A DNA stretch of 64,000 bases, from the IMG/VR virus record IMGVR_UViG_3300043540_000465; one strand, 5' to 3'. The DNA is from an uncultured virus (IMG/VR IMGVR_UViG_3300043540_000465). Taxonomy: Duplodnaviria > Heunggongvirae > Uroviricota > Caudoviricetes. Positions 9,043 to 63,946 of the stretch are shown here, piece after piece. The position numbers and the translations under genes were made by a program. A model generated the notes under the pieces. It was not told the DNA's origin and did not search any database. It saw nothing but the letters and a program-made list of their open reading frames with translations. Each line of letters begins with the position of its first letter. Within the stretch, counting starts at the first letter, position 1.

Positions 9043-9345
9043 ATGATCCCACCCCGGACTCTTCGCTACCAAGGTCAGCTATACGTCCTCGCGGATGCCG
9101 TCGAGAAGGACGCGATAACATCGCAGCCCATCGAGCGGGCCATGATTCGTATCAACGACCTGATCAGTCGGGGTCAGGATCCAGTGGCCGGGACGAAGCG
9201 GCGGCTGGAAGCCACCTTCGACCGCGACAAGATCATGGGTATCGAGCAGGCCGCGCTGATCACGGCCAAGCAGGCCAAGAGCCCCGCGCTCAAGAAGGCG
9301 TGGGAAGACGTGGCCGCTGCCGCGCGCAAGAAGTACAAGGCTTAG
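9043..9345 (+). CDS. Small protein carrying the shared leader (MIPPRTLRYQGQLYVLA)
   Basis: GAGG RBS and ATG; leader motif. Confidence 0.75.
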   Translation: MIPPRTLRYQGQLYVLADAVEKDAITSQPIERAMIRINDLISRGQDPVAGTKRRLEATFDRDKIMGIEQAALITAKQAKSPALKKAWEDVAAAARKKYKA

Positions 9346-9405
9346 CATGGCCGCCCCCAAGCTGATCAAAGCTAGGGCTGGCCGGCTGGCAGAAAGACAA
9401 GTAAC

Positions 9406-9696
9406 ATGACCACGCCGCGCACACTGCACTACCTCGGGCAACGGTACCTCCTCGCCGACGCTGAAGTCACGCTGGAGTTCGCGTTCCCCAACGCGGATGC
9501 GGCCGAGCAGTTCTGGCCCGCGCTGGAGCGGCTAGACCTCAACACCGCGACCGAGACGCGCAACAACCACGCGGTGGTAACAGCGCCGGCCGCGGCTGTA
9601 GCGCAGGTCGTGCAGCTGGCACAGCAGTACGGTGGTACCCCGCGGCCAAGGTGGCAGACACGGCGCCGTCGCACAAGCGCTGACCGCAGTACGTAA
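9406..9696 (+). CDS. Small protein carrying the shared leader (MTTPRTLHYLGQRYLLA)
   Basis: Leader motif; the 3' end may be frameshifted. Confidence 0.65.
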   Translation: MTTPRTLHYLGQRYLLADAEVTLEFAFPNADAAEQFWPALERLDLNTATETRNNHAVVTAPAAAVAQVVQLAQQYGGTPRPRWQTRRRRTSADRST

Positions 9697-9788
9697 GCAC
9701 TTCGACCGCGTCATGACCGAGCCGGAGCAGACGTAGCTTTGGCCTATTTTAGTACAGACACAGATACGAGCGTTACCAGGAGACGCCC

Positions 9789-10196
9789 ATGCCACTGATC
9801 ACCAAGAAGCACCCGCTCGCCACCTCCACGGTCGTGCGTCGCGTCAAGGACGGAGCGTTGGTGGGGTTCATCAAGCGCATCCACACCGAGGAAGGCTGGC
9901 TGGAACGCTACAAGGTGGATCGCAAGCTACACGTGGCCACCACCGCGGAGGGCAAGCCGCGGATCGTGCGCGAAAGCATCGCCGGTAAGTACGAAGTCAT
10001 CACCGGCGTACCGCCGTTCATCAAGGTGCGGGATCCCAAGAGCGGCAGGCTCAAGCTGTTCCGCCGCGCGGATGTCATCCCCACGCCGCCGGCCCCCGTG
10101 CCAACGCCACCACCGGATGACACCAAGCATCCAGCACAGATCAAGGTGGGTGGCCATCGCTACATACGTGAGGATCTGGTGCGCAAAGACAAGTAG
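9789..10196 (+). CDS. Hypothetical protein with internal/C-terminal copies of the leader-like motif
   Basis: AGGAG RBS; PPFIKV...LFRRAD and HPAQIKVGGHRYIRED. Confidence 0.75.
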   Translation: MPLITKKHPLATSTVVRRVKDGALVGFIKRIHTEEGWLERYKVDRKLHVATTAEGKPRIVRESIAGKYEVITGVPPFIKVRDPKSGRLKLFRRADVIPTPPAPVPTPPPDDTKHPAQIKVGGHRYIREDLVRKDK

Positions 10197-10245
10197 CACC
10201 ACTTTTACTGTTGCGCTTACTCTGATCACTGAGACGAGGTAACCG

Positions 10246-10755
10246 ATGGCCAGCAACCCCTTCAACGTCGTCGTACCGACGCTGGATTTCTCACACCCCC
10301 ACGCGCCGACGACCCAGAGCTGCCATGGCGTCAGCATCATGGTCAACGGCCAGATCGTCGGGCGCTTGGAGGACTGGGCGGTATCGGGCGTCTACCAGCG
10401 TACCGTGAACGCGGTGCGCGAGCTGAACTGGCGCACCTTCGGCCGCGTGGTCGACATCGTCCCCTCCATCAACACGGAGTACACCGCGACCGCCAACCGC
10501 TACGAGGTATGGTTCGAAGAAGCGGAGCGGGCGCTGGGCTACAGTAAGGTATTCACCGACCTGCTCGATCAGACCTTCCCGTTCTCCGCCAAGGAAGTGT
10601 GGCTACGGGGCAAGACCCCGTACCGCATCATGGACTACTTCGGCTGCTGGCTAGCGGGTAAGGAGATCACCGGTATCAACGCCACCGGCGACGCCATCAT
10701 CAAGACCAACCTCACCATTCACTTCGTCAGCAAGCAGATCACGTTCGGCCGCTAG
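10246..10755 (+). CDS. Tail tube protein
   Basis: 169 aa, downstream of the sheath. Pattern SIMVNGQIVG...VRELN...DIVPS...DLLDQTFPF...YFGCW fits myovirus tube proteins. GAGGT RBS. Confidence 0.8.
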   Translation: MASNPFNVVVPTLDFSHPHAPTTQSCHGVSIMVNGQIVGRLEDWAVSGVYQRTVNAVRELNWRTFGRVVDIVPSINTEYTATANRYEVWFEEAERALGYSKVFTDLLDQTFPFSAKEVWLRGKTPYRIMDYFGCWLAGKEITGINATGDAIIKTNLTIHFVSKQITFGR

Positions 10756-17983: not shown

Positions 17984-20900
17984 ATGCGCGCTCGCATGGG
18001 CTCTGCCAAACATCGTGCTCGTCCTACCTCCGCACACCGCTCGCGTGAGGATGCGCGGCCGTTCGACCCTTCTGAGCTGATCAAGGAAGCTATCAAGCAC
18101 GACCTGGACTCCTCGGTCCTCAACGAGTTCGACGATCGCTGGGTACCCAAGGCCAAGAACATCTACGATTGGTGCATTGATGGTGAGGCTCTAGTAACTA
18201 CGGATCACGGGTTAATACCGCTACACCAGCTGCAGAAATTAGTTGGCAAAGTCAAGCTGCTCACTTCTACTGGCTTTGCTTCGCTGCTCAGATGGATACC
18301 AAAAGGACAACGAGTAACGCAACGTGTAACTACCGCGGCGGGCTACAGCGTGATTGGTACTCCAGACCATCTCGTCAAGGTACTAAACCCAGATCTGACG
18401 TTAGGGTTTAAACCAATCCGTGATCTGACGGTCGGAGACTATGTAGTGCTAGGAGTAGGAAAGCGACAGCATCGCGGCAAACCGTTAGACCTTACGCAGT
18501 TAGTTGTGAAACCTACTGCCATTGGATGGCGGTCGCAACCGCGACGATCCTCGCGACGTCTAGTACTGCCACGACGTATGTCGCCTGACCTAGCTACCCT
18601 ACTTGGCTACCTCTCATCCGAGGGACATGTCAGATCGGATCGCCTGGCCTTCCATAACACTGATCAGGTTATGATCCGCGAGTTTGCTAGGTGCGTCCTA
18701 CGAAGCTTCGCCATCAGTGTACGCCCCAGTGGAAAGACCTGCTGCCACATCAATAGTGCGGTGGTAGCTAACTACTTGATAGCTCTGGGTCTAGCCCCAG
18801 TCAAAGCGTCCGACAAGCGGATACCGTGGGCAATCCTGCAAGCCGATCGTGCTAGTCAACTAGCTTACTTGCGATCCTACTTCAATGGTGACGGCGGTTT
18901 CGGTGGTCGACGTATGCTTGCGATCTACTCTTCATCGGAGAGGATGACCGCGGATCTCCAATGTCTGCTACTGCAACTAGGCTATCTGTCGAGAAGTAGT
19001 AAGCTGAAGACCTCAGCTATTCCACGCCGCTGGCGCAACAAGATCTTCAAGAGTGGTCCCCTCTGGAAAGTTGCAGTATACGGTCATCAGGCAGTAGATC
19101 TTGTCCGAGAACTACATCTGACCCTGCCTGCTACTTGGAGATACGCCACAAAGCGTCGTGCGAGCCAACAACATGAGACGATACCGTATACCCACGAGCT
19201 ACTACGACGGCTACGACAACAGCATCTAGTTGTTGGCGGTCCCAAGGGACTGTATACCTGCAGTGACGGCCGCCAACGGAGGTTGGGCTTTGCAGTGCAC
19301 ACACCTGCAGGTAAGACCGGCTACCAACTAAAGGGCGACTGGCGTCGTGGATCGCTTACAGAGCTGTTACCGGCAATAGCGACGCTAGACCCTGCAGTAG
19401 CAGCGCGGCTGCGGGCGATAGTCTCTGCAGGTCTAGTATTTGACGCCGTAAAGTTAATAACCCCAGAGACTAAACGCGATGTCTACGATGTGACGGTGGC
19501 GTCACAAGGATCCCCAGAGTTTGTAGCTAATGGGGTGGTGGTACATAACTGCGTCAACCGCAAGTTCCTGGGGATGGATCCGTTCCCCATGCAGATGTTC
19601 CTGATGCTGGAGCTGTTCGAAGACTACTGCGTTGCAGCTGATACGCTAGTCTGCACTGCTGACGGCATCAAACAGATCGATGCGCTAGGACCGTCAACCA
19701 CCGGGTGTGGCTTGCAACCGCGGTGCGTGTCGCTCGTGACACGCGACGGCGTGGAGACGACTTCGCGCCACGGTCTGACCAAGCGGCGGGCCAAGGTCGT
19801 GGAGCTGGAGCTGGAGCGTGGTCTCACGCTACGCGCCACCCCAACTCATCGTGTACTGACTGCCAATGACAACGGCGAAGGGGAGTGGCGACAGCTCGAT
19901 CGTCTGAACACCAACGACTATGTCGCCGTCAAGCTAGGCGCAGACCTGTGGGCGAAGCGCTCGGCCCCGTTGGATGGTTTCAGCTACGCGCAGTCTAAGT
20001 ACCGGTCAGCACGCGAGTACCCTACGCCACGCAAGTGCACGCCCGAGCTGGCACGTGTCCTGGGCTATCTGGTTGCCGAAGGACATGTGTCAACCCACGA
20101 AGCCACCTTCACCAACAGCGATGAGCGGTTGCTAGACGACTACTTGCGTTGCGTGCGTGCGTGCTTTGGCGACGTGCCGGTGTACGTTGACGTAGATCAG
20201 CGCAAAGGCAAAACCAAAGCCGGTACGCTCTACCAACGCGCCACCAATCTGCGCATCGCTAGCCGCTACGTACTCGCTTATCTACGCTACGCCGGCTTGG
20301 GGCCGTCGCTGTCACACACCAAAGAAGTGCCGTGGAGTGTACTGCAATCGCCCAAGACGCTGGTGCTGGAGTTCCTACGTGCCTACGCAGAGGGCGATGG
20401 CAGTGCGTCCAGCGGCTGTACTCATTCCGCGTCTCGAAAGCTGACACAGCAACTGGTGACCATACTGCTGAATCTCGGCGTGCTGCCCGCCGTACGTCGA
20501 CTGCAGCCCAGGACCGGTCGTCCTCAGTGGATGGTTGATCTACGCGGCCCGGCAGAACGCAGCTATATCGAGAAGGTCAGCTGCTTCGCGGGTATGGGCC
20601 GCGCTGACCAGTACGCGGCGCGACCTGACGTGGCCGAAGGTACGCAATACAAGCGTGGCTTGGTATGGCTGCGAGTGCGTAGCGTACGCGCTGCAGGCAC
20701 GGCTGACGTCTACGATGTCACCGTGCCCGGTAGCCAGTCCTTCGTAGCTGACGGGGTAGTGGTCCACAACTGTCCGTGGTGCTCCGATATGGAGTGGTGG
20801 CGCAACCAGCTACAGGTCGACACGCCACTGACGGAGTTCCGTAGCCACCTGCAGCTCTACCGTCACGGCAAGTGCCGGAAGTGTGGTCGCACTCGACTGG

Positions 20901-23900
20901 ATGCGGTCAAGGAACACAAGTGGTTCTTCCGCGACGAGCTAGCCGCCTGCCTAGGGCAGCGCGCTGGCAAGACCGCATGCATCGGCTTCATCTCCACCTA
21001 CCACCTGCACCGCTTCCTCACGCGCGAAGCGCCGTGGCAGACCTACGGCGTGCTGGCCAATCAGAAGATGCTGATGACCTTCGTCGCCTTGACGGAGAAG
21101 CAGGTCGTGGAGTCGCTGTGGGACTCCTTCATCGGCAAGGTGGGTATCTCGCCGTGGTTCGACAAGTACCACAAGTTCCTCCGCGATGAAGGCAAGCGGT
21201 TGGGCGAGGAGCTGTTCTCGTGGAAGACCACCTTCATCACCTACTTCCACAAGCGGTTGATGGCGCACTACGCGGTGGCCGACGAGCGCACCCTGCGTGG
21301 TCCCACGCGGTTCTTCGCCTGTGTCACGGGCGATACGCTGGTTCCCACCGAGCGCGGCTTGCTGCGTGCCGATGCGTTACACGCTGGACATGCCCAGCAA
21401 GTTGTCACTGAAACTGGAACTTGGGGTGCGGTTACTAAGCGCTTCACGCAAGTTGCGCCGGTGATCCGCCTCCGTACGCAACATGGCTTCGAGTTGGGCG
21501 GCTCGCCTGAGCATCCGGTGCGCGTGTTGCGTCTCAACGGTCGGCTTACCTACAAGCGCCTGGAGGAGGTCACACGGCGGGATGTGGTAGTGTTGCGACG
21601 CGGCTTCACTTTCGCGACCACGCCTCCCGAGCTTCCCGAGGTGGCCGTCCCCGCTAGCAACAACCAGCGTTATCATGTCCCACGCGTGATGTCGCGCGAA
21701 CTAGCACGCCTGCTCGGCTATCTGGCGGCCGAAGGTGGCACGAGCAGCACCAACATGGCGAAGAACCACGAGCAGGTTACGCTCTACACCGCGGACGCCG
21801 AGATCGCGGACGACTATCGTCAATGCTTCGCCAAGGTATTCGGGCGAGCGCCGATCCAGGAGAGAGGGCGACCGTGGCGCTTCGCTACACAAAGTAACAT
21901 TGTGGTGCGTTTCCTGCGTGCCCTCGGGGCTGACGGTGATAGCCACACCAAGCAGGTGCCGTGGCCGATCTTGCAGGCGCCGCGAGAGTATGTCGTAGAG
22001 TTCCTGCGGGGTTACTTCGACGGCGATAGTACGCTTGACGACAATCGGTGCCTGACCGCCGAGAGCGCGTCGTTCGTACTACACCAGCAGATCCAGCTTT
22101 TGCTACTAGGGATCGGCATCGTCGCGCATCGACGTACGACGCAGCACCACGTCACTATCAAGCAAGCCGACGCCAGCTACGCGAAAGAGTGGCGCACCTA
22201 TAGCATGCTGCGCATCAGTGGACGTGCCCTCAATCGCTACGGCCAGCAAATTGGCTCAATCCTGCCGCGCAAGCGTGTACGTAGCGTGCCGCGTGATGAC
22301 CGCGACGTAATTCCGGTGATGGTTAGCGCGTTCCGTCAGCTCCCAGCGTCGTACTTGAGCCGTGTACGAACTGCCCGCGGTGTGGCACGGGCGATGTTGC
22401 GCGCTGGCGACTACGTAGGTCGCGCACTCGACGCAGTGGCACCGGCTACTATGCGGCGCGTGCGCAAGCTGGCACATCGACACCTCGTCTACGACCGGGT
22501 GGTGGCCATCACCACCGACACGCTGGAGCAGCCGGTCTACGACATCACAGTGCTGCCGCAGCATAACTTCGTCGCTAATGGTTTGGTTGTATCGAACTCA
22601 GTCGACGAGGTAGGCTGGTTCGACGCCAAGAACTACAACAAGAAGGTCAAGGGCAACGCGCGCGGAGTCATCGCCTCGCTGGCCAACAGCTTGATGACGG
22701 TGCGCGGCGCGGCCGAGAAGCGGCGCTTCCGCGGCGACTACGATCTACCTACTGCCATCATGTGTAACATCGGGTCGCCGTCGTCGATGGACGATGAGAT
22801 CATGCGGCTGGTGCGGATGGCCAGCAAGCATGTAAAGATCTTTGCCCTGCACGCGCCGACTTGGGATATCAATCCCGAGTTGAGCCCGGACGCGTGTCGC
22901 CGCGCGGCCGACGAGGATGGGGGTCTGGATTTCGACCGTGACTTTGGCGCGATTCCCCCGCTGGCCTCGGATCCGTTCATCGACAATAAGACCAAGCTGG
23001 ATATGATCTTCAGCCACGGCGATCCGCCGCTGCTGCACCTGGAGCCGCAGGAGAAGTTGCTGACGCTGTACGGACAGCCGGAGACCTTCGTGTGGTACAA
23101 GGTCACCAACACCATGCCCGAGCGCACCATCCCGCGCATGGTGGCCGTCGACACAGGCGAAACGTTCAACTCCTTTGGGCTCACGATCGCGCACTGGGAC
23201 ATCGAGAACAACCGCATCGTGGTAGATCAGGTCATCGAGATCAATCCGGCAGGCGGGCGGCGAGTATTTTTCCCTGGGGTGCTGAATGACATGCTGCTGT
23301 GGATGGCCGACAACCTGCGCGTGCGCCTGTTCGCCTTCGACCGCTGGCAGTGCCTTGCGGCGGGCACGCGAATCAACACGAATCGCGGCTTGATACCCAT
23401 CGAAGAGGTGGTTGAAGGGGACATGGTTCATTCTCGTGTCGGCCCCCGCCCGGTCAAGAAGCGTTGGTCCTTTGGTAAACGACCCACCCTCCGCCTCATC
23501 ACGGAAGATGGTGACGTGCTTGAAGGGACACACAAACATCGGATTGAGGTAGCTACGTCGTGGCAATACGATTCCGTGACTACTAGACTACGCCGCCCCG
23601 TGTGGGGCTGGCGTCGTTTGGATCAACTTAGAGTCGGCGATGTAGTCCATATGGTTGACGACGCGGTGTCGGTTGACGCCCCTGACGCCGCTCTGACGGG
23701 AGACAAACAACAGCTAGGCTTTCGCAAGACCGGCAGTGTGGGAAAGATTGCGGAGTGGGAGTTTCCCAAGACGATGACGCCTGCTCTAGCCGAATGGTTA
23801 GGACTTATTTGGGGAGACGGTACGATACAACGAGATGGCGTGAGCCTTACGGTGGCTGACCATGAAGCGCGCGATGCTGCTCGCGTGTTTGAGCGGCTGT

Positions 23901-47348: not shown

Positions 47349-47350
47349 TC

Positions 47351-47806: not shown

Positions 47807-47827
47807 AGAGTGGCCAAGGAGGCAGCT

Positions 47828-47986: not shown

Positions 47987-48052
47987 TTCCCCACCGCTAC
48001 ATCTCCTTCTCATATCTTTATCTAGCTACCAACTTTTCCTGCGGAGGTTACC

Positions 48053-48265: not shown

Positions 48266-48271
48266 GGGTAC

Positions 48272-49324
48272 ATGTCGGCGATCGTTTTTCGTGGCTGCGT
48301 GTACGTAGAAGCCAAGCGCAACTTAGTACCCGCAGTGAACGTCGAGACTGGCATGAAGGTCATGGTCAGTCCGCATACGTTGCAAACTCAACCGCAGCGC
48401 TACAAGGTGCGCCGTACAGATCCAGCTGAACGTACGGTAGTGCATCCCGCGATTGCCCGACAACCGGCCCCTACTACTCCGACTGCACCTGATACTGCGG
48501 GACCGCAACCGCACGAGTTGTTGCTGCAGGCAATGGCGGCCAAGCGTGTGCCCTATACGCCGAATAAGCAAGAAACCAGTGCGCTCCTGGCTCCAACCCA
48601 GTTACCTCCCGCGGCCCAAAGCGAAGTACGACAACGGCTGCGTGATACTCTAGGGTACCTGGGGCTGCACCATCATGGCGTCAAGCGGGGCGCCAACTCC
48701 TACCTACTCAATGACGACCCCGATGCCTACGGCTCCTACAACCTGGCCACAGGTGCCATTAACATGCAGGAGAGAGTGCACCAGCGGGCCATGGCCTTCC
48801 TACGCGATCCACACAACCCCCGCAATCGCAAGTACGCCGACGACGCGGCGACATTGCTGCATGAGACCATTCACTCGTGCTCGCCGCTACACCACAAAGC
48901 GTACGCCACTCATGCCGCGTTCGTGGAAGAAGCTACCACTGAGCTGTTGTCGCGCAAGGTCATGCGCGACAAGTTTGGCGTGCCGGATGAGCACTGGCAG
49001 GAACCTGATGGGTCGGTCGATGGTTCCTACGGCAAGGAGATCCATGGACTGCTGCGCATCATCAGCCGGGCGCTAGGTGATCCGCCGACTGCGCACCGGC
49101 GGCTGCAGCAGATGGTGGAAGATGCCGCGGTGAAGATGCGGCAACCGCAGCCCAAAGTGTTCGACCGGCGCAATCCCTACGTGGATCACTTCGTCGCACA
49201 GTTGGAGCTACCGGAGCACCTGTTCGCCGGGATGAATCCCGAAATGCGCGAGCAGAAAGAGCGCGAAGTGCGCAACAACATTAGCAATGCCATCAGCGAA
49301 CAGTACGGGACGTGGGAAGGATAG
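48272..49324 (+). CDS. Zincin-like metallopeptidase with shared leader
   Basis: GSYNLATGAINM, TLLHETIHS (HExxH) and downstream FVEEATTE third-ligand helix. Confidence 0.8.
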   Translation: MSAIVFRGCVYVEAKRNLVPAVNVETGMKVMVSPHTLQTQPQRYKVRRTDPAERTVVHPAIARQPAPTTPTAPDTAGPQPHELLLQAMAAKRVPYTPNKQETSALLAPTQLPPAAQSEVRQRLRDTLGYLGLHHHGVKRGANSYLLNDDPDAYGSYNLATGAINMQERVHQRAMAFLRDPHNPRNRKYADDAATLLHETIHSCSPLHHKAYATHAAFVEEATTELLSRKVMRDKFGVPDEHWQEPDGSVDGSYGKEIHGLLRIISRALGDPPTAHRRLQQMVEDAAVKMRQPQPKVFDRRNPYVDHFVAQLELPEHLFAGMNPEMREQKEREVRNNISNAISEQYGTWEG

Positions 49325-49358
49325 TAAGCTGGTATTTTGTGCTACTAAGGACCATACC

Positions 49359-50975: not shown

Positions 50976-51017
50976 TTTTCTCGTACATGTCTGCGTATCT
51001 CCTTCTAGGAGGAATAT

Positions 51018-51152
51018 ATGCAGCTTACACAGCAGGAAGTTGCACAGCGCTGTCGCCGCAGTGGTCTCCGACTGGTAAGTAAGTACCACAGTACTGCGCA
51101 GCCGATACGCGTAGCTTGTAGAACCTGTGGACGGGAGTGGTACCGACTCTAA
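51018..51152 (+). pseudogene. 44 aa zinc-ribbon fragment (GLRLVSKYHSTAQPIRVACRTCGREW)
   Basis: AGGAGG RBS; same module as at 10792. Confidence 0.5.
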
Positions 51153-51161
51153 GGAGCTGCC

Positions 51162-51299
51162 ATGAGCCCGACACCGACGATAATCAAGTATCAGGGGCAG
51201 GTCTACAAGTTAGTTGGCACCCGCAGCGGGTAAAGCCTACACGGTGCAACAGGGTCAGTTCACCGACTGGATCGAGACGGGGCAGATCGAGAAAGCTTG
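51162..51299 (+). pseudogene. Leader-bearing truncated ORF (MSPTPTIIKYQGQVYKLV)
   Basis: AAGGAG RBS; stop at 51233 after 23 codons. Confidence 0.55.
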
Positions 51300-51305
51300 A
51301 TGATC

Positions 51306-51857
51306 ATGCGTACTCCTAAGCGTATCACCTACCACGGCCAACAGTACGTACGCGCGGACTGGCCGGTGCTGCCCGGCATGGGTGGCCGACTCACCGTTGG
51401 CCCACACATGCCGCACCAGTCGCCGTCGCCATCACAAGCGGTACGACCGCCGGGTGGAGGCCAGAGTGCGGGCGGTCCTGGCGGGCCGTCGGTACCGGTA
51501 CCATCCATCTCCGGTCCCGACATCGAGAAGGGACAGATTCCGCCACGGAAGGTACGCAAGCGGCTGCGGCGGTTCCTGCATCATCTGCGCAAGCTACTAC
51601 TGCAGACCGTGGATATGCGCGACGTTGATCTGCGCTATCTGCTGGCCAACTATAAGCTGCCCGCCGTGAGCATCTTGCTCAACGAGTGGCACGCCAGTCA
51701 CGACCGCATCGCCAAGTACATTGACGACGCGGAGATGGAGTTGGCAACCGCGGTACCGCGGCCCACGCACACGCCCAGCCTGGAACCGGGGCGGCGCCTG
51801 CCGCAGGAACCGTGGCCGAGTCCCTCCAACCCCTTCACGGGTCCGCAGAATCGCTAG
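51306..51857 (+). CDS. Leader-bearing Pro/Gly-rich protein (MRTPKRITYHGQQYVRA)
   Basis: Leader motif; intact ORF. Confidence 0.75.
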   Translation: MRTPKRITYHGQQYVRADWPVLPGMGGRLTVGPHMPHQSPSPSQAVRPPGGGQSAGGPGGPSVPVPSISGPDIEKGQIPPRKVRKRLRRFLHHLRKLLLQTVDMRDVDLRYLLANYKLPAVSILLNEWHASHDRIAKYIDDAEMELATAVPRPTHTPSLEPGRRLPQEPWPSPSNPFTGPQNR

Positions 51858-51865
51858 GAGCCACC

Positions 51866-52098
51866 ATGGGTACGCCAGCCGAGCTCAAACCGGAGAAGGA
51901 TGTTGAGGTTGAGGTCAAGACGCACGAGCACTCGCTGTCAAGGAGCATGCGTTCCTGGATGGCTTCTTGTCGGGATCGCACCAGGGATACATGGAGGCGC
52001 CGCCCGCGCCGTCGCCGTGGCAACAGCAGCGACTGGAGCGCGCGCCGTTGCGCGATCTGCCCACGGACATCGAGACGCTCAAGCACATCAAGCGGTAG
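51866..52098 (+). pseudogene. Small gene with apparent frameshift near 51935
   Basis: AGGAG + ATG MGTPAELKPEK...; a protein-like tail VKEHAFLDGFLSG...LKHIKR* lies in another frame. Confidence 0.45.
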
Positions 52099-52128: not shown

Positions 52129-52701
52129 ATGTCTATTCGCTACAAAGGCGTGTTCTACGTTGATGCGGCGTCCGCGGACTTCATGGCGCCTGCCCCCACC
52201 AAGCCGCTGGTGACTATTCCCACGCTGGATCCAAGTAGTAGTGGACCAGTGGGACAGATCGAGCCGGATGGATACACCGTGCATCTGGGACCGGATATGT
52301 ACCCACCCATCGGCTTCGACACTCCGCCAGATCTATGGGCCGCGAAGCAGCGTAACCCTAGCGACCTCGTGGTCATGAAAGAGATCGACGTCTACCGGGT
52401 GCTCAACATCCAGACCGCCAAGGATATGCAGGCGGCCATGATTACGTGGGACGCCGATCAGCTGCTGAAGTTCGAACGGCCAGTACGCACGTCGCTGGCC
52501 CGCGCGCTGATCGATATGGCACTACGGTACCAACGTCAGCCCATGGGCGTGTGGGTCAAAGCGGTAGAGGATCCGGACTTCTTCGATCGCTGGCGTGATG
52601 AGCGAGCGACGGTAGTGCTGAACGACCTCACTGACAGTCCGGACAACCTCGCCGACGGCGAACCGTTGCCCCGCGAGGAGCAGCAATCGCTGCCGCCCTA
52701 G
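52129..52701 (+). CDS. Protein with shortened leader (MSIRYKGVFYVDA)
   Basis: GGAG RBS before ATG 52129. Confidence 0.75.
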   Translation: MSIRYKGVFYVDAASADFMAPAPTKPLVTIPTLDPSSSGPVGQIEPDGYTVHLGPDMYPPIGFDTPPDLWAAKQRNPSDLVVMKEIDVYRVLNIQTAKDMQAAMITWDADQLLKFERPVRTSLARALIDMALRYQRQPMGVWVKAVEDPDFFDRWRDERATVVLNDLTDSPDNLADGEPLPREEQQSLPP

Positions 52702-52961: not shown

Positions 52962-55900
52962 ATGTCCGAGTACCTGTTTAAGACCAGTCAAGGTGACTTC
53001 TTCGCGGTCGAACCTGTGGATCACCGCGAGGAAGCGGCAGCCGCCGAGAAGGTGTACGCCGCGGAATGGACCCGGTACCTCGCGGGTGACATTCCTATGC
53101 CACACCACCCCTACGAGCGGCGCATCTCGTATCTGAACCCCGGCCGGGAGATGATCTACTACACCAAGGGTGACGTGCTCAATGGCGTGCCCATCCCCGC
53201 CAAGCGCGTGACGCGGCTACTGCGCGACGCCAGCCCCTTGAACGATCGCGACATTCGCGACATCCTGGAACTGCCACGATACTACGTCGAGCAGCTGTAC
53301 GACTCGCGCATTCTCACCGACGAGGAGTACAACGAGGTCTACGACTGGGCGTACAAGGAGCGCATGCGGCGGGCGCTGCCTGGTACCGGTTTCCCCCTGT
53401 ACTTCTACGGCCTGCATCGACTCTTCAAGAAGTTCATCGACGGCAAACTGGACCTGATGCGGCAGCAGTACTCCGATGGCACCTACTCGTGGATGATGTT
53501 CCTCGATCCGGTGCCGCATGCGTCGGCAGCCGAGGCCGCGTTCACCGGCAAGGTGAAGAAGAAGCAGCGGGAGAAGTTCCAAGAAATCATCGAGGATTCC
53601 AGCGGCGTTCCCCAGGATTACGTGCGCTACTGCGTGGCCCAGCAGTACGGGGCCAAGTTCGCCGAGATCACCGCGCGGATCGATGCCAAGGTCGCGGCCA
53701 TTGCCAACGCTAAGCCCGAGGACTGTCCGCTCATCCCCAACACCTCCAGCAAGGAAGAGTTGTACACGCACCAGGCACTGGCGCTGGCGAAGCTGCACCC
53801 CAAGGGACCAGACGGCAAGCGTATCGACGTGGATGAGGCGGTCATCGACATCGACGTTGGCGGCGGCAAGCTGCGCATCCTGGTGTACGATGCGTTGCTG
53901 TGCATCAAGGAAGGGCGCTGCAAGCGACCGTTGCTGGTCATGCCTAACTCCACTATCGCGCAGCAAAAGGACGAGATCGAGAGGTTCACGGGCCGTAAGA
54001 TGAAGCAGCTGGCCGACGGTGTCAGCAAGAAGATGGTGCGGCCTCCCAAGGTCAACGTGGTGGTGATCAACACCGACACGTTCCAGAAGTACGGCCTCAA
54101 GTACTGGGGCCACGGGGGCGAAGAGGCGGGCCGCAAGCGGTTCGAAGAGATCGCCAACGCGATGCCGCCCAATACCATCTACATCACCAGCTACGACTGG
54201 CTGCGGATGGGCGGCGAAGACGAGCCCGAGGGCGCGCCGATCGGCGAGATGGTAAAACAGTACCAGCGAGATTCGGACGGAAATCTGGAGATAGACGAGC
54301 AGGGCAATCCCAAGGAGATCAAGGCCGCGGTCAAGGTGATCACGCGGTACCCGCGGGCCGAGTGGCTCATCGATGCACTGGGCATCGATTACGTGGCGCT
54401 CGATGAGAGTCACCTTATCAAGAACCGCTCGTCAGCTACCGGCAACGTAGCGCTGCATCTGGGCAACGTCAAGATCAAGCGCATCGCCACTGGTACCATC
54501 ACTCCCAACCAGCCCGAAGACCTGTGGCGCCAGTACGCGTTCGTGGATCCGGGCCTGTTCCGCAAGTACTCCGACTTCCTAGCAGCCTACGGCAACGAGA
54601 CCGACGAGCAGGGCAAGGTGCTCAAGTGGAAACGCACCGCCCTGTCGGAGATCCGGCAGAAGATGATCAAGCACGGCGCGGTTATGTACCGCCGCGCTAC
54701 GTGGAAGCACCGCCTGCCGAAGAAGACCGAGACCTTCCACCAGGTGCAGCTGAACGATAACCAGCAAGCGGTGTACAAAGCCATCATCCTCGACCTGCAG
54801 CAGGAGATCGAGAACAACCCCACGCTCAAGGCGGAGTGGGAGAAGTTCCAGCAGGATCCCAACGCGATGCGCGACGTCGAGGCCAAGCACATCCTGGTCA
54901 AGCTGTCGCGGCTGGACTCGTTCCTCACCGCCATGGGTCAGGACACGGGCGATCTGGACGAGATCACCATCGTCGATGAAGAGGGCAAGGAACAGAAAGT
55001 CGAGACCAACCGCAAGTTCGTGCAGACGCTGCAGGGCGAGGACAAGGTTAGTCCCAAGTCCGCCGCCATCGACAAGATCCTGGATGGCCACTTTGCCAAC
55101 CCGAAGAACGGCAAGGTGGTGGTGTTCGTGCAGAACGAGATATCGTGCCAGCACTTGTACGACAACAGCAAGTACAAGGACAAGGCTGGCTGGTTCATGA
55201 AGTCGCCCCAGCTGCGACCGGTAGATGAGGCCCAAACCAACCTGAAGCGCTGGGAAAACCCTGACGACAAGGGCCTGCTAGTGCTGTTCGCAGTCGACAA
55301 GTCGCTGCGCACGGGTCGCAACTTCCAGAAGGTGTGCAACCGCGTCATCCATGCGGACTGCCTGTGGGACCCAGGTAATATGGATCAGCGTATCGGCCGC
55401 ATCGAAAGGCCGAAGTCGCCGTTCGGTGAGGGACCGCAGGCGGATCCCGGCATCTTCGTAGACTGGGTGGTCACCAACAACACCGCAGAGACCACCAAGT
55501 TCGCGCGCCTGCTCAGCAAGGTGGCCATCGTCGCCCAGGTGAACAGCGGCTTCGAAACCGATACTGAATGGACGCCGATCACCATGAACCCCATCAACAT
55601 GGGGATGATCGTGAACGAGGATCAGACGCCACCGCCGCCGTTCATCTCCTGGGATACCATCGCCGCGCACCGCACGCTGCCCCCCGCCATAGCAGTGCAC
55701 GAAGACAAGACCGGCGCTGAGTTCCGCGCCACGTACGGCACGGCGGATTACAAGCGGCAAGATCCCGAGCTTATCCATAAGTCACAGCCGGTGCATACGC
55801 CGAAATTGAATACCGAGCGCGTCGCGTACGAAAAGGAAGAGATCGGTACGCCGATCAAGGTGGATGCCAAGGGTGAGGTAATCGATGCGGAGCCGGAGCA

Positions 55901-57071
55901 GGAGCCTACGGTTGAGGACATCCGCAAGAAGAAAGCCCCCGGCCCGACGGTGCGCATCGATCACAAGCTGAAGGGTGGCAAGCCCATCCTGGAGATCAGC
56001 CACCCGCAGTCCATCAAGAACCTCGACCCAGATCACATCAAGGAGCTGGGGTTCAAGTACACCAAGATCAAGGGGCAGAAGGTGCTGTTCGTGCACCGCA
56101 GTTCGAACCTGCACCTGAAGCGCATCATCCAAGCGCTGCGCGACCACGGCTACCGGGTGGACTACCAGCACTCCAAGGCGGTACCGCACGTGGATACCAT
56201 CAAGGATCCGCGCGCGGCCAAGGAAGAGGCGCCTCCCAAGCCGCAGCCCGAGCGTGAGCGGGTGCGCAAGCCCAAGCCGGAAGAGAACGAGGGCGGGCCG
56301 GAGTTGGAGCGCGAAGAAGGTGCCCCGCGGCCCCCGAAGCGCAAGCCGCAGGAGGACGAGGACGAGGACGTTATCACCTTGGACGATGTGGAGGAAGCGG
56401 CCAAGCCTCCGGTGTCGCTGGATGCCGTGATGATCAACGACGCCATGTTCTATCGGCTGCGAGAGCCCAAGGGTGAGCTAGAGAGCGAGTTGGCGGCGCT
56501 AGGCTTCCGCCCCGAGCGCCCGCACTACTACGCGCCGCTGCGGTCGTGGCAACAGGCGCTGTTCCTGATCAGCCGCATCAAGAAGCTAGGCATCACCATC
56601 GAGGACGAGGCCGACGTGGTCAAGGCTATCAAGAATCGCGCCGTGCCGCTGATCAAGCCCAAGGGCGGCTTCAGCGAACTGGAGATCGACAAGCGGCTGC
56701 CGAAGAAGAGGGTGCGGGGCACCATCACCCTGTACTTCGCCAAGATCGACGGCGAACCCAACCTGGGAGTCACCGACCGCGAGAACACCGTGGATCTGAG
56801 TATGCTGCGCGCCCTGGGCTTCAGGCCGGCCGAGCGGTCGTACTTCTGGCGGCGCATGCAGCAGAAGGGTGACCTGCTGGTGATTCTGAAGCGCATGCTG
56901 GTGGCCGGGTTCAAGATCAAGAACTGGGAGAAGCTGTCAACGGTACTGCGCTCCGTCTTCAAGGTGTCGACGGCGGGGTTGGAGGGGTTGGAGTACACCG
57001 AAGAGAAGGACCAGCCGCGCAAGAAGCGGCGGGCCTCGCTTACTGCCGCCGCGTTTCGTACGTGGCTCTAG
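52962..57071 (+). CDS. SNF2/SF2 helicase-like ATPase with atypical Walker A and C-terminal repeats
   Basis: YTHQ, DVGGGKLR, LLVMP, TSYD, LDESH, ATGT..PNQPEDLW, KVVVF, TGRNFQ, WDPGNMDQRIGRIER. AGGAGAGG RBS before ATG 52962 (alternative start GTG 52920). Confidence 0.85.
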   Translation: MSEYLFKTSQGDFFAVEPVDHREEAAAAEKVYAAEWTRYLAGDIPMPHHPYERRISYLNPGREMIYYTKGDVLNGVPIPAKRVTRLLRDASPLNDRDIRDILELPRYYVEQLYDSRILTDEEYNEVYDWAYKERMRRALPGTGFPLYFYGLHRLFKKFIDGKLDLMRQQYSDGTYSWMMFLDPVPHASAAEAAFTGKVKKKQREKFQEIIEDSSGVPQDYVRYCVAQQYGAKFAEITARIDAKVAAIANAKPEDCPLIPNTSSKEELYTHQALALAKLHPKGPDGKRIDVDEAVIDIDVGGGKLRILVYDALLCIKEGRCKRPLLVMPNSTIAQQKDEIERFTGRKMKQLADGVSKKMVRPPKVNVVVINTDTFQKYGLKYWGHGGEEAGRKRFEEIANAMPPNTIYITSYDWLRMGGEDEPEGAPIGEMVKQYQRDSDGNLEIDEQGNPKEIKAAVKVITRYPRAEWLIDALGIDYVALDESHLIKNRSSATGNVALHLGNVKIKRIATGTITPNQPEDLWRQYAFVDPGLFRKYSDFLAAYGNETDEQGKVLKWKRTALSEIRQKMIKHGAVMYRRATWKHRLPKKTETFHQVQLNDNQQAVYKAIILDLQQEIENNPTLKAEWEKFQQDPNAMRDVEAKHILVKLSRLDSFLTAMGQDTGDLDEITIVDEEGKEQKVETNRKFVQTLQGEDKVSPKSAAIDKILDGHFANPKNGKVVVFVQNEISCQHLYDNSKYKDKAGWFMKSPQLRPVDEAQTNLKRWENPDDKGLLVLFAVDKSLRTGRNFQKVCNRVIHADCLWDPGNMDQRIGRIERPKSPFGEGPQADPGIFVDWVVTNNTAETTKFARLLSKVAIVAQVNSGFETDTEWTPITMNPINMGMIVNEDQTPPPPFISWDTIAAHRTLPPAIAVHEDKTGAEFRATYGTADYKRQDPELIHKSQPVHTPKLNTERVAYEKEEIGTPIKVDAKGEVIDAEPEQEPTVEDIRKKKAPGPTVRIDHKLKGGKPILEISHPQSIKNLDPDHIKELGFKYTKIKGQKVLFVHRSSNLHLKRIIQALRDHGYRVDYQHSKAVPHVDTIKDPRAAKEEAPPKPQPERERVRKPKPEENEGGPELEREEGAPRPPKRKPQEDEDEDVITLDDVEEAAKPPVSLDAVMINDAMFYRLREPKGELESELAALGFRPERPHYYAPLRSWQQALFLISRIKKLGITIEDEADVVKAIKNRAVPLIKPKGGFSELEIDKRLPKKRVRGTITLYFAKIDGEPNLGVTDRENTVDLSMLRALGFRPAERSYFWRRMQQKGDLLVILKRMLVAGFKIKNWEKLSTVLRSVFKVSTAGLEGLEYTEEKDQPRKKRRASLTAAAFRTWL

Positions 57072-57743: not shown

Positions 57744-57974
57744 GTGCCCACCGCCCATCGACTAGTGCGTCATGGCGTGGTCTACGTGCGCGCCACTGAG
57801 TTAATGCCGCCGTGCCGCAACTACCGCCGCGACCGCATCCACGAGTGGACGCCGGTGATGACGGTTAGTGGTTGTCAGACCGGCTGTGAGGGCTACGGAG
57901 TCATGGCACTGGATCCGTGCCCATTTGATACTGACTGGGCAGCAGCAGCCCGCACCTGCCCGTGCTATCGTTAG
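57744..57974 (+). CDS. Cys-rich small protein with leader variant (MPTAHRLVRHGVVYVRA)
   Basis: GGAGGA RBS; six Cys. Confidence 0.6.
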   Translation: MPTAHRLVRHGVVYVRATELMPPCRNYRRDRIHEWTPVMTVSGCQTGCEGYGVMALDPCPFDTDWAAAARTCPCYR

Positions 57975-58251: not shown

Positions 58252-58800
58252 ATGCACTCAGTAGCTGCCAAACAACGATGGCAGCGCGTCCGCCGCGCCC
58301 GGCGCAAGCACAACTTTGCGCGCAAGATGGAGGCTGCGCAGGCGCGCAACCGCGCGCGCACGGCACTGGAGACACAGGGCTACACCGCCGTCGACTTCGA
58401 CTGGCTGGGTACCTACAATCCCCGCTGGGCACGCATCCGCTACTTCATCCTCAAGCGCGATCGCGGCGAATGTCAGAGCTGCACGGCCCACGCGTGCGGC
58501 GCCAAGTTCCCCATGCATTGCCATCACATCGTGCCCCGCCGCTATCCCGGCGGCACCGAGCGGGCTGACAACCTCATCACCCTATGCCCCAAATGTCACA
58601 AGCTGGTCGACGTCGCCATCTGGGACATCATCGAACGCCAGCATAGCCGGCGCACGCTAACCCCCGCGAAAATTCAGCAGCTGTGCCAAGACGTACTGCT
58701 CCGCGTAGCTAGCGCCCACTGCAGCCCCTATCTCGATACCATCGCCCGCTTGTGTCACCGCGATCGGGGCCAACCTCAAGCCACGGTCGCGCTGTACTAG
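58252..58800 (+). CDS. HNH endonuclease
   Basis: W..IR..ILKRD..CQSC...HHIVP....GG.....NLITLCPKCH. Confidence 0.88.
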   Translation: MHSVAAKQRWQRVRRARRKHNFARKMEAAQARNRARTALETQGYTAVDFDWLGTYNPRWARIRYFILKRDRGECQSCTAHACGAKFPMHCHHIVPRRYPGGTERADNLITLCPKCHKLVDVAIWDIIERQHSRRTLTPAKIQQLCQDVLLRVASAHCSPYLDTIARLCHRDRGQPQATVALY

Positions 58801-60887: not shown

Positions 60888-62423
60888 ATGCACCAACGGG
60901 TGGCCATCCTGGTACAGCGTACGCACCCCAAGTCCGGCAAGAAGCGCTGGGCGCTGGTGTCGCGCAAGAAGGTCAAGGGCAAGCGGCGGGTGCTGCGGTG
61001 GTTCAAGGGCAAGCCCAGTACCGAGCGAGTCAAGAAAGAGGAGGCTCGAGTGCAGTTCTTCAAGCGCAAAGGTAGCCTGGCCGCGTGGTGCCGTGCGCGT
61101 ACCGGCAGCTACTTCGCCAGCCACAAGGTACTGCGGCGCCTAACGCCTGTGATCGACGACGTGCTGCTTACCAAGGTGGCCATGAAGTTTGGCAAGGACC
61201 ACAAGGCGGTCACGGCCATCTTCGACAAGCTACGACAGGCGCATCGGGAAGGGCGCCTATCGGATCACGACATGACCCTGACCCGGAGCATGATCCGCTA
61301 CCTGCAGCGGCATCAACACCTGACCAACCGGCAGATCGACTACCTGGAGAACCTGCACCATAACGCCGCCCGCCGCCCGTTGGGGAAGCCGCCGAAGGAG
61401 GACTTCCCCTCACTAGATGCCGACGTCAGCGAGCCCAAGCCGAAGAAGCCACCCAAGGGCAAGAAGAAGCCTGAGCCGCCAAAGCCCAAGGGCAAGAAGA
61501 AGCCTGAGCCGCCAAAGCCCAAGGGCAAGAAGAAGCCTGAGCCGCCAAAGCCCAAGGGCAAGAAGAAGCCTGAGCCGCCAAAGCCCAAGGGCAAGAAGGA
61601 ACCACCCAAGGGTAAGCAGGAGAAGGGCGAGGATCCTTACGGCGGTACGGGGTGGACACCCGAGGAGCCCGACCTGACTGAGTTCGGTGAGGATGACGAG
61701 GACGAGACGCCGCGCAAGAAGAAGGAACCGGCGCCGAAGAAGGAGAATCTCGATCCAGCGCTGCATGAGCACCTGTTGGAGTTCGGTGAGAGCGATGACG
61801 ATGAGGACGAGGACGAGGCGCCGCGCAAGCCGAAGAAGAAGGAGCCGGCACCGGTCGATCCTGATCTCATGGAGTTTGGCGAAGACGACGATGAGGCTCC
61901 GCGCAAGCCGAAGAAGAAGGAGCCGGCACCGGTCGATCCTGATCTCATGGAGTTTGGCGAAGACGACGATGAGGCTCCGCGCAAGCCGAAGAAGAAGGAC
62001 AAGAAGAAGCCGCGGGTGGAGCCGCTGGATATGACCGAGTTCGGCGGGGACGAAGATGATGCGCCGCCGCGCAAGCACAAGGACCACAAGAAGCCCAAGG
62101 TCCAGCCGGTGGTGAAGCCCAAGGTCAAGGTCAAGGTGCCCAAGCCGCCTAAGCCAGAACCGAAGCGACCCGACAAGGGTAAGGCGAGGGGCCAAGGCGT
62201 CGCCCCGCCAGGCACGGCCGAGTGGTTCCGCGCGGTGCGCAACAAGGACAAGAAGATCGTGTGGGTGAACCGTAAGCGGTTCATGGCCCACCCTGGCAAG
62301 TACTCGATCATGAAGAAGTACGTGCCGCGGTCGATCAGCCACCCGGGGGTGCCGCGCAAGCCTGACAAGCACAAGGCGAAGAAGGTAAAGACCATCACGT
62401 GGGCCAAGCCCAAGCGGCGGTAG
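60888..62423 (+). CDS. Highly charged Lys/Pro- and Asp/Glu-rich repetitive protein
   Basis: 511 aa ORF containing two tandem arrays. Confidence 0.8.
   Translation: MHQRVAILVQRTHPKSGKKRWALVSRKKVKGKRRVLRWFKGKPSTERVKKEEARVQFFKRKGSLAAWCRARTGSYFASHKVLRRLTPVIDDVLLTKVAMKFGKDHKAVTAIFDKLRQAHREGRLSDHDMTLTRSMIRYLQRHQHLTNRQIDYLENLHHNAARRPLGKPPKEDFPSLDADVSEPKPKKPPKGKKKPEPPKPKGKKKPEPPKPKGKKKPEPPKPKGKKKPEPPKPKGKKEPPKGKQEKGEDPYGGTGWTPEEPDLTEFGEDDEDETPRKKKEPAPKKENLDPALHEHLLEFGESDDDEDEDEAPRKPKKKEPAPVDPDLMEFGEDDDEAPRKPKKKEPAPVDPDLMEFGEDDDEAPRKPKKKDKKKPRVEPLDMTEFGGDEDDAPPRKHKDHKKPKVQPVVKPKVKVKVPKPPKPEPKRPDKGKARGQGVAPPGTAEWFRAVRNKDKKIVWVNRKRFMAHPGKYSIMKKYVPRSISHPGVPRKPDKHKAKKVKTITWAKPKRR
61452..61598 (+). repeat. 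33 bp tandem repeat, about 4.5 copies (PKGKKKPEPPK)
   Basis: cccaagggcaagaagaagcctgagccgccaaag at 61452, 61485, 61518, 61551 and partial at 61584. Confidence 0.95.
61821..61999 (+). repeat. 78 bp tandem repeat, about 2.3 copies (PRKPKKKEPAPVDPDLMEFGEDDDEA)
   Basis: Units start at 61821, 61899 and 61977. Confidence 0.95.
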
Positions 62424-62434
62424 GAGGACGGATC

Positions 62435-62680
62435 ATGACAACGGTTCCGAAGAAGATCAAGTACCGCGGGCAGGTGTACGTACTGAAGACGGCCACGACC
62501 AAGGCCGCCGCGTGGGAGAACCTGCCTAAAGGCTGGGACAAGAAAAGTCTCAAGAGCATGTGGCGGTCGCTCACCGGCAGCCGTAAGCATAAGATCACTG
62601 CATGTGCTAAAAAGATGGACGGTAAGGTATCAGATGCCTACGCATTCTGTGCCTCGCTGGCCAGAAAGGTTGATGAGTAG
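62435..62680 (+). CDS. Leader-bearing small basic protein (MTTVPKKIKYRGQVYVLKTA)
   Basis: AGGAGG RBS before ATG 62435. Confidence 0.8.
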   Translation: MTTVPKKIKYRGQVYVLKTATTKAAAWENLPKGWDKKSLKSMWRSLTGSRKHKITACAKKMDGKVSDAYAFCASLARKVDE

Positions 62681-62727
62681 CGGGGGCGCCGCGCCATGGC
62701 CTCAAGGTTCGCCGCCGCGCGGTATCC

Positions 62728-63318
62728 ATGTACCGCAGCGGATGCTCAATCCGAGAGACAGCTGCTAGTCTTGAGCTACCAGCAGGTACCGTTCAGTACA
62801 TGCTACGGGGCATTAAGCTACGACCACGCGCAGAGGCACTAACTGGTCGCAAGCTATCACCTGCGCATATCGAGAAGATCCGTGTTCTGAAGACCGGATT
62901 AGTGCAGTCAGCTGCGACGCGGAGAAAGCGAAGTTTGGCACTCAGGGGTCGGGTCAAGCCTGTTGCCTTCGTCCGACACATGAGTGAAACGCGGCGAGGG
63001 AAAAGCAATCCCAACTACCGTCACGATCTGAGCGCTCGCGATCGTGCACACCTGCGAGTACGAGGATATACCCCAGGCTATAACAACTGGAGCAGAGCCG
63101 TTCGAGCTAGAGACCACGATATCTGTGTTGTGTGTGATGGGCCAGGAGAACTAGCTCATCACCTGAATGGGTATCGCAGCTTTCCTGAGCAGCGAGCTGA
63201 TCTAGATAACGGCGTCACGCTGTGCTCAAACTGCCATACCGCGTTCCATCGACGCTACGGACGTCTGCTTGTAACAAAACAGCAATTCACTGAGTTTCTG
63301 CGACGCAAGATGGGCTAG
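62728..63318 (+). CDS. Free-standing HNH homing endonuclease with HTH and NUMOD3-like repeats
   Basis: SIRETAASL HTH; GRKLSPAHIEKI and KRSLALRG repeats; GKSNPNY; CVVC...AHHLN...LDNGVTLCSNCH; codon usage differs from flanking genes. Confidence 0.85.
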   Translation: MYRSGCSIRETAASLELPAGTVQYMLRGIKLRPRAEALTGRKLSPAHIEKIRVLKTGLVQSAATRRKRSLALRGRVKPVAFVRHMSETRRGKSNPNYRHDLSARDRAHLRVRGYTPGYNNWSRAVRARDHDICVVCDGPGELAHHLNGYRSFPEQRADLDNGVTLCSNCHTAFHRRYGRLLVTKQQFTEFLRRKMG

Positions 63319-63327
63319 GAGCTGACC

Positions 63328-63946
63328 ATGACGCAGCCGCTGCTAGTGCACTTCAACGGACGGCGGTACCTCCGCGCAGGGGTCACCAAGCTCGCCGCCG
63401 CCGTGAACCTCGCGGTCTACGACCCCACACACGAAGTCGAGGCGCAGAAGTGGGTCGCCGATCAGCTACGCAAAAAGCGGCGCGTGTGGCGCGACCTCGC
63501 CGAGCAGATGGACTTCGTGCTGTTCTCGTCGGACATTCCCGACGCGCAGAAGGCGGTGTTCGCCATCCGGCAGAAGTTTGACAAGATGTTCGATACGCCG
63601 GTGAAGCTGATCGAACTGGTCGAGGCCGAGCAGCTGCAGACCAAGCCGGTCGCGCCAGTCACCGACCGGTCCACAACCCCGGCCACGCCGCGCAGCCAAG
63701 CAGCTGACAGCGCCACCGCCAGAGTTGAAGCAGGAGGTCGACGCGCCGCTGCAACCTCGTCCGCACGAGACTGCATCCGAGTACTACAAGCGACTGCGCG
63801 CAGGAGTAGAGCGCGAGATGCAGAAGCTCCACCAGCTGATCCAACGCTACTACACGGAACAGGCTAGAAACCCGAAGGACTGGGGCTACGTGGGTGACCT
63901 GGGATACATCTACAGGAAGCTGCGTGAGATGAACCCAGAGGAGTAA
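63328..63946 (+). pseudogene. Leader-bearing gene (MTQPLLVHFNGRRYLRA), probably frameshifted into 63725..63946
   Basis: The first frame becomes low-complexity after ~63680, while frame 63725 is protein-like (...DWGYVGDLGYI...). Confidence 0.55.

Follow-up and report, generated by a model that had tools for sequence, protein, structure and literature searches.

Why would some twenty genes in the late region of one phage, coding for proteins of quite different kinds, carry the same short peptide? The question is raised by a stretch of 64,000 nucleotides from an uncultured member of the Caudoviricetes (IMG/VR record IMGVR_UViG_3300043540_000465), which is referred to here, at its full length, as the window. 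An earlier reading of the letters alone, the original prediction, had listed about 20 open reading frames (ORFs) with a common N-terminal leader and had proposed that it loads varied proteins into the virion; all 21 of the coordinates that it listed translate as it had written them. Because the relatives of its capsid protein are PaBG, RSL1, Alexandra-type Erwinia phages, Motura and BcepSauron, the window is classed by sequence as the virion-gene region of a large PaBG/RSL1-related phage, for which a contractile tail may be inferred from these relatives.

The answer preferred here, at a probability of roughly 60%, is that the leader is a head-loading tag resembling the capsid targeting sequence (CTS) of phage T4. 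The tag would dock proteins on the prohead and be removed by the prohead protease at an alanine, and its DNA would drive the exchange of the tagged genes, or cassettes. The protein sequence that accompanies a tag is called its payload.

The tag motif and its conservation

Aligned together, 30 leaders give M-x-x-P-x-x-I-K-Y-x-G-Q-x-Y-x-L-A as their consensus, in which the proline and the last tyrosine never vary, and the motif proper, P-x-x-I-x-Y-x-G-x-x-Y, occupies 11-17 residues. When the window was scanned in six frames with the core pattern [ILVF]x[YF]x[GN]xx[YF], 25 matches were obtained, 19 of them on the plus strand, as against 2.4 ± 1.6 (maximum 7) in 30 order-3 Markov sequences. Enrichment at N-termini over random sequence is also evident: 14 matches lie at most 12 codons from a methionine, compared with 0.2 ± 0.4 (maximum 1) in the same controls, and these comprise 13 true leaders and one chance internal match at 7646.

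The motif is kept by selection at the protein level. Among 37 leaders, 20 from the window and 17 from a close relative, the codons of same-residue pairs are identical in 1890 of 3402 cases (0.556), whereas codon usage predicts 0.616; since agreement falls below that expectation, selection acts on the tag peptide. This bears out the protein-level conservation that had been claimed, but the accompanying statement that the motif is no DNA repeat requires softening. Seven tag copies of 53 nt retain 62-77% identity to a reference copy, tag DNA of the window and the close relative agrees at 76-90% over 41-90 nt, and because of these residual patches the tag is also a weak DNA repeat. A Shine-Dalgarno-like word stands upstream of 13 of the 21 tag starts; beyond this ribosome site the upstream DNA of the cassettes is not conserved, and sigma-70-like sites are not in excess there (3, with 3.8 expected). 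A Pfam scan of 30 tags (20-21 aa, E ≤ 10) gave one stray match at E 0.073, peptides this short affording such a scan little power.

A predicted hairpin and a separable alanine

The tag is predicted to form an amphipathic beta-hairpin, one face of which holds its Ile, both Tyr and Leu. The hairpin-like shape suggested in the original prediction agrees with an AlphaFold2 model of a natural double tag, in which two beta-hairpins are formed at a pLDDT of about 70. The same model had no match among viral structures in Foldseek at E ≤ 0.001, and the double tag had no usable feature match in the ESM Atlas, all TM values being under 0.5. A natural ORF with two tandem tags is found at L055:137-712 (minus strand), as would be expected from insertion or from unequal tag-tag crossover. 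Tandem copies in relatives are spaced 14-19 residues apart, and three copies are the most seen in any carrier protein.

The description of the motif as an N-terminal leader fits most copies but not all: 115 are N-terminal, 14 internal and nine C-terminal. In the window, a conserved gene of 135 aa (9789-10196, plus strand) bears a C-terminal hairpin copy with its core at 10140-10163 and no alanine after it, and internal, tandem and C-terminal copies also occur in relatives. Located with a profile that assigns no score past the last tyrosine, an alanine lies three residues past that tyrosine in 84 of the 115 N-terminal copies, four of the 14 internal ones and none of the nine C-terminal ones (Fisher p 2e-5). 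A separate count gave 64 of 83 N-terminal copies with this alanine, and glutamate was outside the six commonest residues at the position. Because alanine follows N-terminal but not C-terminal copies, the motif splits into a hairpin and a separable alanine, which suggests a portable docking hairpin joined to a separate candidate cut site that is kept only ahead of a payload.

The prohead protease and a candidate cut site

The head maturation protease gene of the window (34601-39694, plus strand; phrog_18299, E 2e-35) contains three inteins. Its intein-free orthologue has 267 aa; all 15 of the homologues aligned with it keep His139 and Ser192, which are inferred to be catalytic. The predicted fold resembles T4 gp21 (5jbl; Z 8.8, rmsd 2.7, 133 residues aligned), the varicella-zoster virus protease (Z 6.4, rmsd 3.5, 115 aligned) and the human cytomegalovirus (HCMV) protease (Z 5.2, rmsd 2.8, 111 aligned); Foldseek alone returned no match for the protease at E ≤ 0.001. 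T4 gp21 cuts after glutamate. The SPN3US gp245 protease likewise cuts after glutamate, at A-X-E (PMC10052503), and HCMV protease assay substrates have alanine at P1 (PMC13486704). No cut-site consensus appears in the available portion of PMC8539031.

Alanine at P1 may well be the specificity of the window-family protease, judging from tag and capsid sequences. In the linker that precedes the capsid protein core, [TV]A[SAE] occurs in 25 of 63 parsed homologues, as against 7.2 in shuffles (maximum 16 in 1000). As the PaBG capsid protein matures, its mass falls by about 20% (PMC7412058), and a cut after Ala73 would take 19.2% off the capsid protein of the window. An invariant Asn-Ala in the capsid protein was considered as the maturation site and rejected; a cut there would remove only 11-13% of the mass, which is too little, and the linker around residue 73 is preferred in its place.

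Cassette exchange within tag DNA

The loci of tagged genes are hypervariable, and even close relatives do not have the same set. The contig L008, whose capsid protein is 97% identical to that of the window, has 18 tag matches within 8 kb near the protease gene where the window has about seven, and includes blocks of cassettes absent from the window. The tag at 39825 matches one L008 cassette on its 5' side (L008:14677) and another on its 3' side (L008:15908), and the tag at 33347 sits at the start of L008:9561 but is followed by the payload of L008:10949, which lies four cassettes farther along. Cassettes have been gained or lost at junctions inside tag DNA, and deletion in the window and insertion in the relative are both possible. 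Ends of alignment blocks fall within 45 nt of a tag core in 11 of 41 cases, a count that is biased because tags sit at gene borders. HNH-type and SNase-like genes stand between cassettes (58252-58800, 62728-63318 and 30989-31402), and the blocks shared with relatives break around them.

Tagged cassettes of the window

All of the tagged cassettes described here lie on the plus strand. Intact ones are found at 9043-9345 (100 aa, as in its orthologue; tag at 9043-9093), 46626-47348 (an ankyrin-repeat protein of 240 aa; Pfam Ank_2, E 2e-13), 48272-49324 (350 aa, with an HExxH motif and no Pfam or PHROG match), 51306-51857 (183 aa) and 62435-62680 (81 aa). The ORF at 33347-33691 (114 aa) begins with a zinc ribbon, and its tag is the junction at which the window lacks four cassettes that the relative has. 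A coiled-coil ORF at 44837-45139 (100 aa) has a tagged homologue with 41% identity in the distant locus L059, and the ORF at 46293-46616 (107 aa) has a second module in common with 46626 and 48272.

Other cassettes are altered. A frame switch is seen at 9406-9696 (96 aa, 224 aa in the relative), at 39825-39992 (55 versus 98 aa, with the hybrid tag described above) and, close to the end, at 52129-52701 (190 versus 234 aa). The cassette at 34160-34399 combines a frame switch with the loss of its start codon, which is CTG in the window and ATG in the relative, and the one at 32952-33337, in which a Cys pair module precedes His-rich helices, is broken by a frameshift into two parts, 32952-33167 and 33164-33337, where the relative has a single ORF of 129 aa. 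At 63328-63867 a conserved first domain of 120 aa precedes a variable tail (179 aa, 342 aa in the relative). The two remnants recognized in the original prediction were confirmed, at 9347-9409 (the first eight tag codons, the remaining cassette being absent; its orthologue in the relative L029 has 90 aa) and 34531-34563 (ten codons), and two more of its listed leaders proved to be remnants as well, at 40132-40173 (13 aa; orthologue 130 aa) and 51162-51233 (a complete tag and then a stop, 23 aa; orthologue 129 aa). Degenerate tags are present at 45145-45378 (TTG start, 77 aa), 45880-46281 (133 aa) and 57744-57974 (GTG start, 76 aa); a strict profile search returned none of these three.

Given that nine of 15 cassettes are truncated and that junctions lie inside tag DNA, the array of this phage turns over fast and has in part decayed, and the earlier picture of about 20 working cargo proteins was overstated for it. 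A contig at depth 245 differs from the window by one base over 32000-51900; it is possibly the source of the window itself and so gives no independent check on the frameshifts as assembly error.

Payloads

The 91 payloads of the window and its relatives sort into 59 families, in keeping with the claim that what accompanies the tag is unrelated, although the second module shared by 46293, 46626 and 48272 means that this is not fully so. Among the payloads of the window are ankyrin repeats (46626), a coiled coil (44837), a Cys pair module (32952) and a protein with an HExxH motif (48272). Pfam cut-offs were passed by four of 54 payloads scanned (AAA, cupin, DUF6900 and CBM_14), and the ankyrin protein was the one match among 17 window ORFs scanned. 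Acidic stretches of low complexity, His-rich stretches or coiled coils, lacking an enzyme domain, make up many of the payloads. Tagged ORFs of distant relatives include AAA_33, cREC and DUF5661 domains and one predicted ADP-ribosyltransferase (ART)-like fold (ESM Atlas feature scores 0.94-0.95); ART and cREC domains have been argued to be often head-packaged (PMC9503650). The commonest payload, in 16 of the 91, is a module H-K-K-C-P-x-G-x-H-W...C followed by His-rich helices, which is shuffled among cassettes; in the window it is found at 33003-33073, close to the ends of 31499 and within 58852, and one copy matches CBM_14 above the cut-off.

Distribution in the phage family

A pattern scan of metagenomes gave 56 loci, of which 34 have at least one profile match, about six of those probably being chance singles. 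A search by protease alignment gave 35 viral loci; the tag is present in four (17, 12, 11 and two matches) and in none of the other 31. Nor was it found in two complete genomes of the family, about 390 kb in length, or in 45 kb of mycobacteriophage ET08. Carriers range from 43 to 64% GC and down to 46% protease identity, and the residue pattern is retained among them. At that distance stand two carriers, G002 and G003, in which, with block borders drawn after the data were seen, 22 of 43 head-region ORFs are tagged and none of 64 opposite-strand ORFs (thymidylate kinase, RuvC and similar genes). An untagged block of G002 encodes an Apyc1-like metallo-beta-lactamase (Pfam above the cut-off) and a protein with a GmrSD N-terminal domain (2548-3336 and 89-619).

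In a protease tree of 27 of the 35 loci, from which near-duplicates and the split L090 were left out and whose root is unresolved, tag carriers fall on two branches, and L083, with a different, Arg-rich tag, is sister to the hairpin carriers L078 and L087. A single origin of the hairpin tag was not supported, since the tree requires two changes and 0% of 200 bootstrap trees had one; neither a donor nor a direction is claimed. Other branches have shared N-terminal peptides of their own, mostly ending in alanine, on several head-region ORFs; these were chosen by eye with no shuffle control. They comprise the Arg-rich peptide ending in alanine on four ORFs (L083:15784-18874), M-[RK]-L-S-E type starts on five plus-strand ORFs (L090:2685-13478 and L077), and R-[IL]-L-x-V-A starts near the capsid gene, up to three per locus, in L068, L070, L075, L082 and L092. 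A second tag type was also sought in PaBG, where only two or three I-x-I-N-L-type starts were found, one of them virion gp83; as these are too few, no PaBG tag is claimed.

Proposed mechanism and alternative explanations

In the mechanism proposed, the 11-17 residue motif, which late-region genes carry under protein-level selection, would fold as an amphipathic beta-hairpin. From either end of a protein, this hairpin would dock at sites that recur in the core or shell of the prohead during assembly, tandem tags serving avidity. The prohead protease would cut an N-terminal tag after the alanine three residues past the last tyrosine, and the freed payload would stay inside the head, from where it may later be ejected into the host. 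As each cassette begins with a tag, the 40-50 nt over which tag DNA is similar would be a crossover point at which blocks of cassettes are deleted, inserted or re-loaded with a new payload; many payloads would be dispensable and decay. The head-loading role, which is argued by analogy, is consistent with the enrichment in the head region, the variable payloads, the alanine of N-terminal copies, a protease of gp21/herpes fold and the predicted hairpin. As first framed, it took no account of copies at C-termini, inside proteins or in tandem, of the junctions in tag DNA or of the decay of cassettes. A complex prediction with the capsid protein, a scaffold domain and the tag scored 0.00 in both runs, the fold of the partner being uncertain, and weighs neither for nor against docking.

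Several observations weigh against a head-loading tag. The capsid protein, scaffold, portal and protease of the window are without the hairpin tag, as is its SNF2 gene, although the PaBG homologue of the latter matches a virion band by mass. Every carrier found is uncultured; the whole record of the cultured relative PaBG had no match with two profiles, nor did 34 N-termini across 50 kb of phage Y3 show the tag. In G002 and G003, eight of 89 ORFs outside the head and opposite-strand blocks are tagged, by the same post hoc borders. Of the N-terminal copies, 31 of 115 lack alanine at +3 and 14 lack it within three places; of the nine C-terminal copies, two are orthologues and one is a doubtful match. 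The protease fold does not fix alanine specificity, because T4 gp21, its closest fold, and SPN3US gp245 cut after glutamate. The motif [TV]A[SAE] was chosen by eye, parsing failed for 87 of 150 capsid homologues, the linker of the window reads K-T-A-H and does not match, and the PaBG linker has both alanine and glutamate near the 20% point. Finally, nine of 15 window cassettes fall short of the orthologues with which they were compared, and in five of these nine a frame switch can be seen.

A broader form of the proposal, held tentatively, is a two-part address code independent of position, in which the hairpin would act from either terminus, the alanine site would be present only when removal is needed, and tag DNA would be the recombination handle; branches of the family would have swapped in unrelated tags (hairpin, Arg-rich or helical), all ending in alanine. 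The hairpin could instead be a self-assembling structural module that builds mixed beta-sheets or a solenoid in an inner body or a surface coat, with payloads neither cut nor ejected. The tandem and C-terminal copies, the position of tagged genes among head genes and the frequency of acidic low-complexity, His-rich or coiled-coil payloads lacking an enzyme domain would suit such a module, which we nonetheless consider unlikely, since an alanine after N-terminal copies only is not expected of a permanent repeat and no carrier protein has more than three copies. A surface coat is further disfavored by the intracellular-type domains among the payloads (AAA ATPase, P-loop kinase, cREC and ART-like).

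The short motif, independent of position, might also bind a hub outside the virion, such as an adaptor, chaperone or protease, that times or localizes late proteins in the infected cell; the untagged core head proteins and the eight tagged ORFs outside the head block would then be accounted for. This is quite improbable, given that none of the 64 opposite-strand metabolic and recombination ORFs is tagged, that sister branches use other tags on ORFs of the same head region, and that no candidate hub was found. Still less probable is a tag with no protein function. It would be the start of a late gene that has been duplicated many times, useful as a good site of translation initiation and as a recombination handle, and new ORFs, most of them decaying, would be born behind it. 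Junctions inside the tag, the biased count of alignment block ends near tag cores, the truncated cassettes and the Shine-Dalgarno-like words would all be explained, but agreement at synonymous sites does not exceed what codon usage would give, by which this explanation is largely refuted; the residue pattern outlasts wide changes in GC content and protease identity, and C-terminal copies cannot serve translation initiation.

Neighboring genes

The other virion genes identified in the window are also on the plus strand. The major capsid protein (42755-43894; PHROG) has an N-terminal extension of about 75 aa and about 31% identity to PaBG gp80. A search with it gave 95 phage records, all below 60% identity and at about 28-33% in the best 40 of the 95, and the closest solved structure is gp27 of PDB 6wkk. 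Upstream are a PaBG gp81 homologue, a virion structural protein by PHROG (41964-42734), and a scaffold-like protein (40463-41833), so called from its position, acidic N-terminus and likeness to PaBG gp82, and labeled 'ATPase' in PHROG. The terminase large subunit (17984-25051; phrog_17415, E 1e-118) has four intein-sized inserts, seen as Pfam intein and LAGLIDADG matches and as gaps against L008, and the portal protein (25861-30972; phrog_16240, E 2e-85) has two. With the three of the protease there are nine such inserts, none of them in L008, which is otherwise 90-97% identical; inteins at such density in a portal and a prohead protease are unusual.

The SNF2-type helicase (52962-57071) is a distant homologue of a PaBG ORF (1969 aa) that matches by mass virion band gp202, the largest one (PMC7412058), and a virion-borne SNF2 enzyme may be a trait of the family. 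A Lys/Pro-rich protein at 60888-62423 contains 33-nt and 78-nt tandem repeats whose copy number varies among relatives, and in its N-terminal domain it is similar to tagged ORFs of L019, L078 and L087. From size and position, 5165-8488 and 10246-10755 are the probable tail sheath and tube, which Pfam and PHROG did not confirm; in L029, seven tagged ORFs lie between the probable sheath and tube.

Relation to known systems and significance

The closest known counterpart is the CTS of T4, by which internal proteins of various kinds are brought into the scaffolding core and which is able to carry GFP as well (PMC3012670); its cargoes Ip1-Ip3 inhibit different GmrSD nucleases (PMC12373910). In both cases a short peptide is common to unrelated, fast-changing proteins at a variable locus in a genome with a gp21-fold protease, and loading into the prohead core is proposed for the hairpin tag by analogy. 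The differences are considerable. The hairpin-tag phages are a non-T4 family with a PaBG/RSL1-related capsid, and their tag, known from sequence alone, is a predicted beta-hairpin that also occurs in C-terminal, internal and tandem positions, ends in alanine where T4 gp21 sites end in glutamate, and opens at least 20 cassettes per genome as against three in T4. Since the phage is not T4-like and the tag is neither strictly N-terminal nor ended by glutamate, it is not a member of the T4-type CTS system. The CTS concept is already known; the position-independent hairpin, the separable alanine site and the putative recombination role of tag DNA are the new points, and they are specific and testable.

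Other systems share single features. In herpesviruses, release sites of the assemblin follow the pattern Y-x-x-A, the very ending of the tag. The assemblin belongs to the same predicted fold family as the window protease and has alanine at P1, and the near-invariant Asn-Ala of the family capsid proteins is followed by Ser-Ser, as in an HCMV assay substrate (PMC13486704); its sites, however, process scaffold and protease and no cargo array, and the resemblance is a lead only. In phiKZ and SPN3US, many giant-phage head proteins are matured by one prohead protease and some propeptides are short (20 and 24 residues), but the available portion of PMC10052503 describes a common cut site, with glutamate at P1, and no common docking motif, and the phage family is unrelated. 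Effectors fused to MuF or portal proteins resemble the payloads in class (ART-like, cREC) and in their place near head genes, but are carried by a whole head domain (PMC9503650) where an 11-17 residue peptide would suffice here. The PeSL promoter-terminator cassettes of T4-like hyperplastic regions are likewise repeated elements at which small variable genes are gained or lost (PMC4122927), yet they are non-coding regulatory DNA, whereas the tag is a coding peptide under protein-level selection with no excess of sigma-70 promoters. A literature search, mostly outside subscription papers, found no description of the hairpin motif, nor is there one in the available portions of two jumbo-phage reviews (PMC7824862, PMC13282480).

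All carriers found are uncultured and the cultured relatives checked have no tag, which is a practical limit. If the proposal is true, virion-borne cargo could be read straight from sequence, and dozens of small uncharacterized proteins per genome would become candidate injected anti-defense or host-takeover factors, like T4 Ip1-Ip3 (PMC12373910). The CTS principle would be extended to a family unrelated to T4 and to another design, a beta-hairpin acting from either terminus with a separable cut site, which bears on how proheads select their internal proteins. Cargo loading would also be tied to the evolution of the cargo, the same 45 nt that mark a protein for the head marking the points at which cassettes are exchanged.

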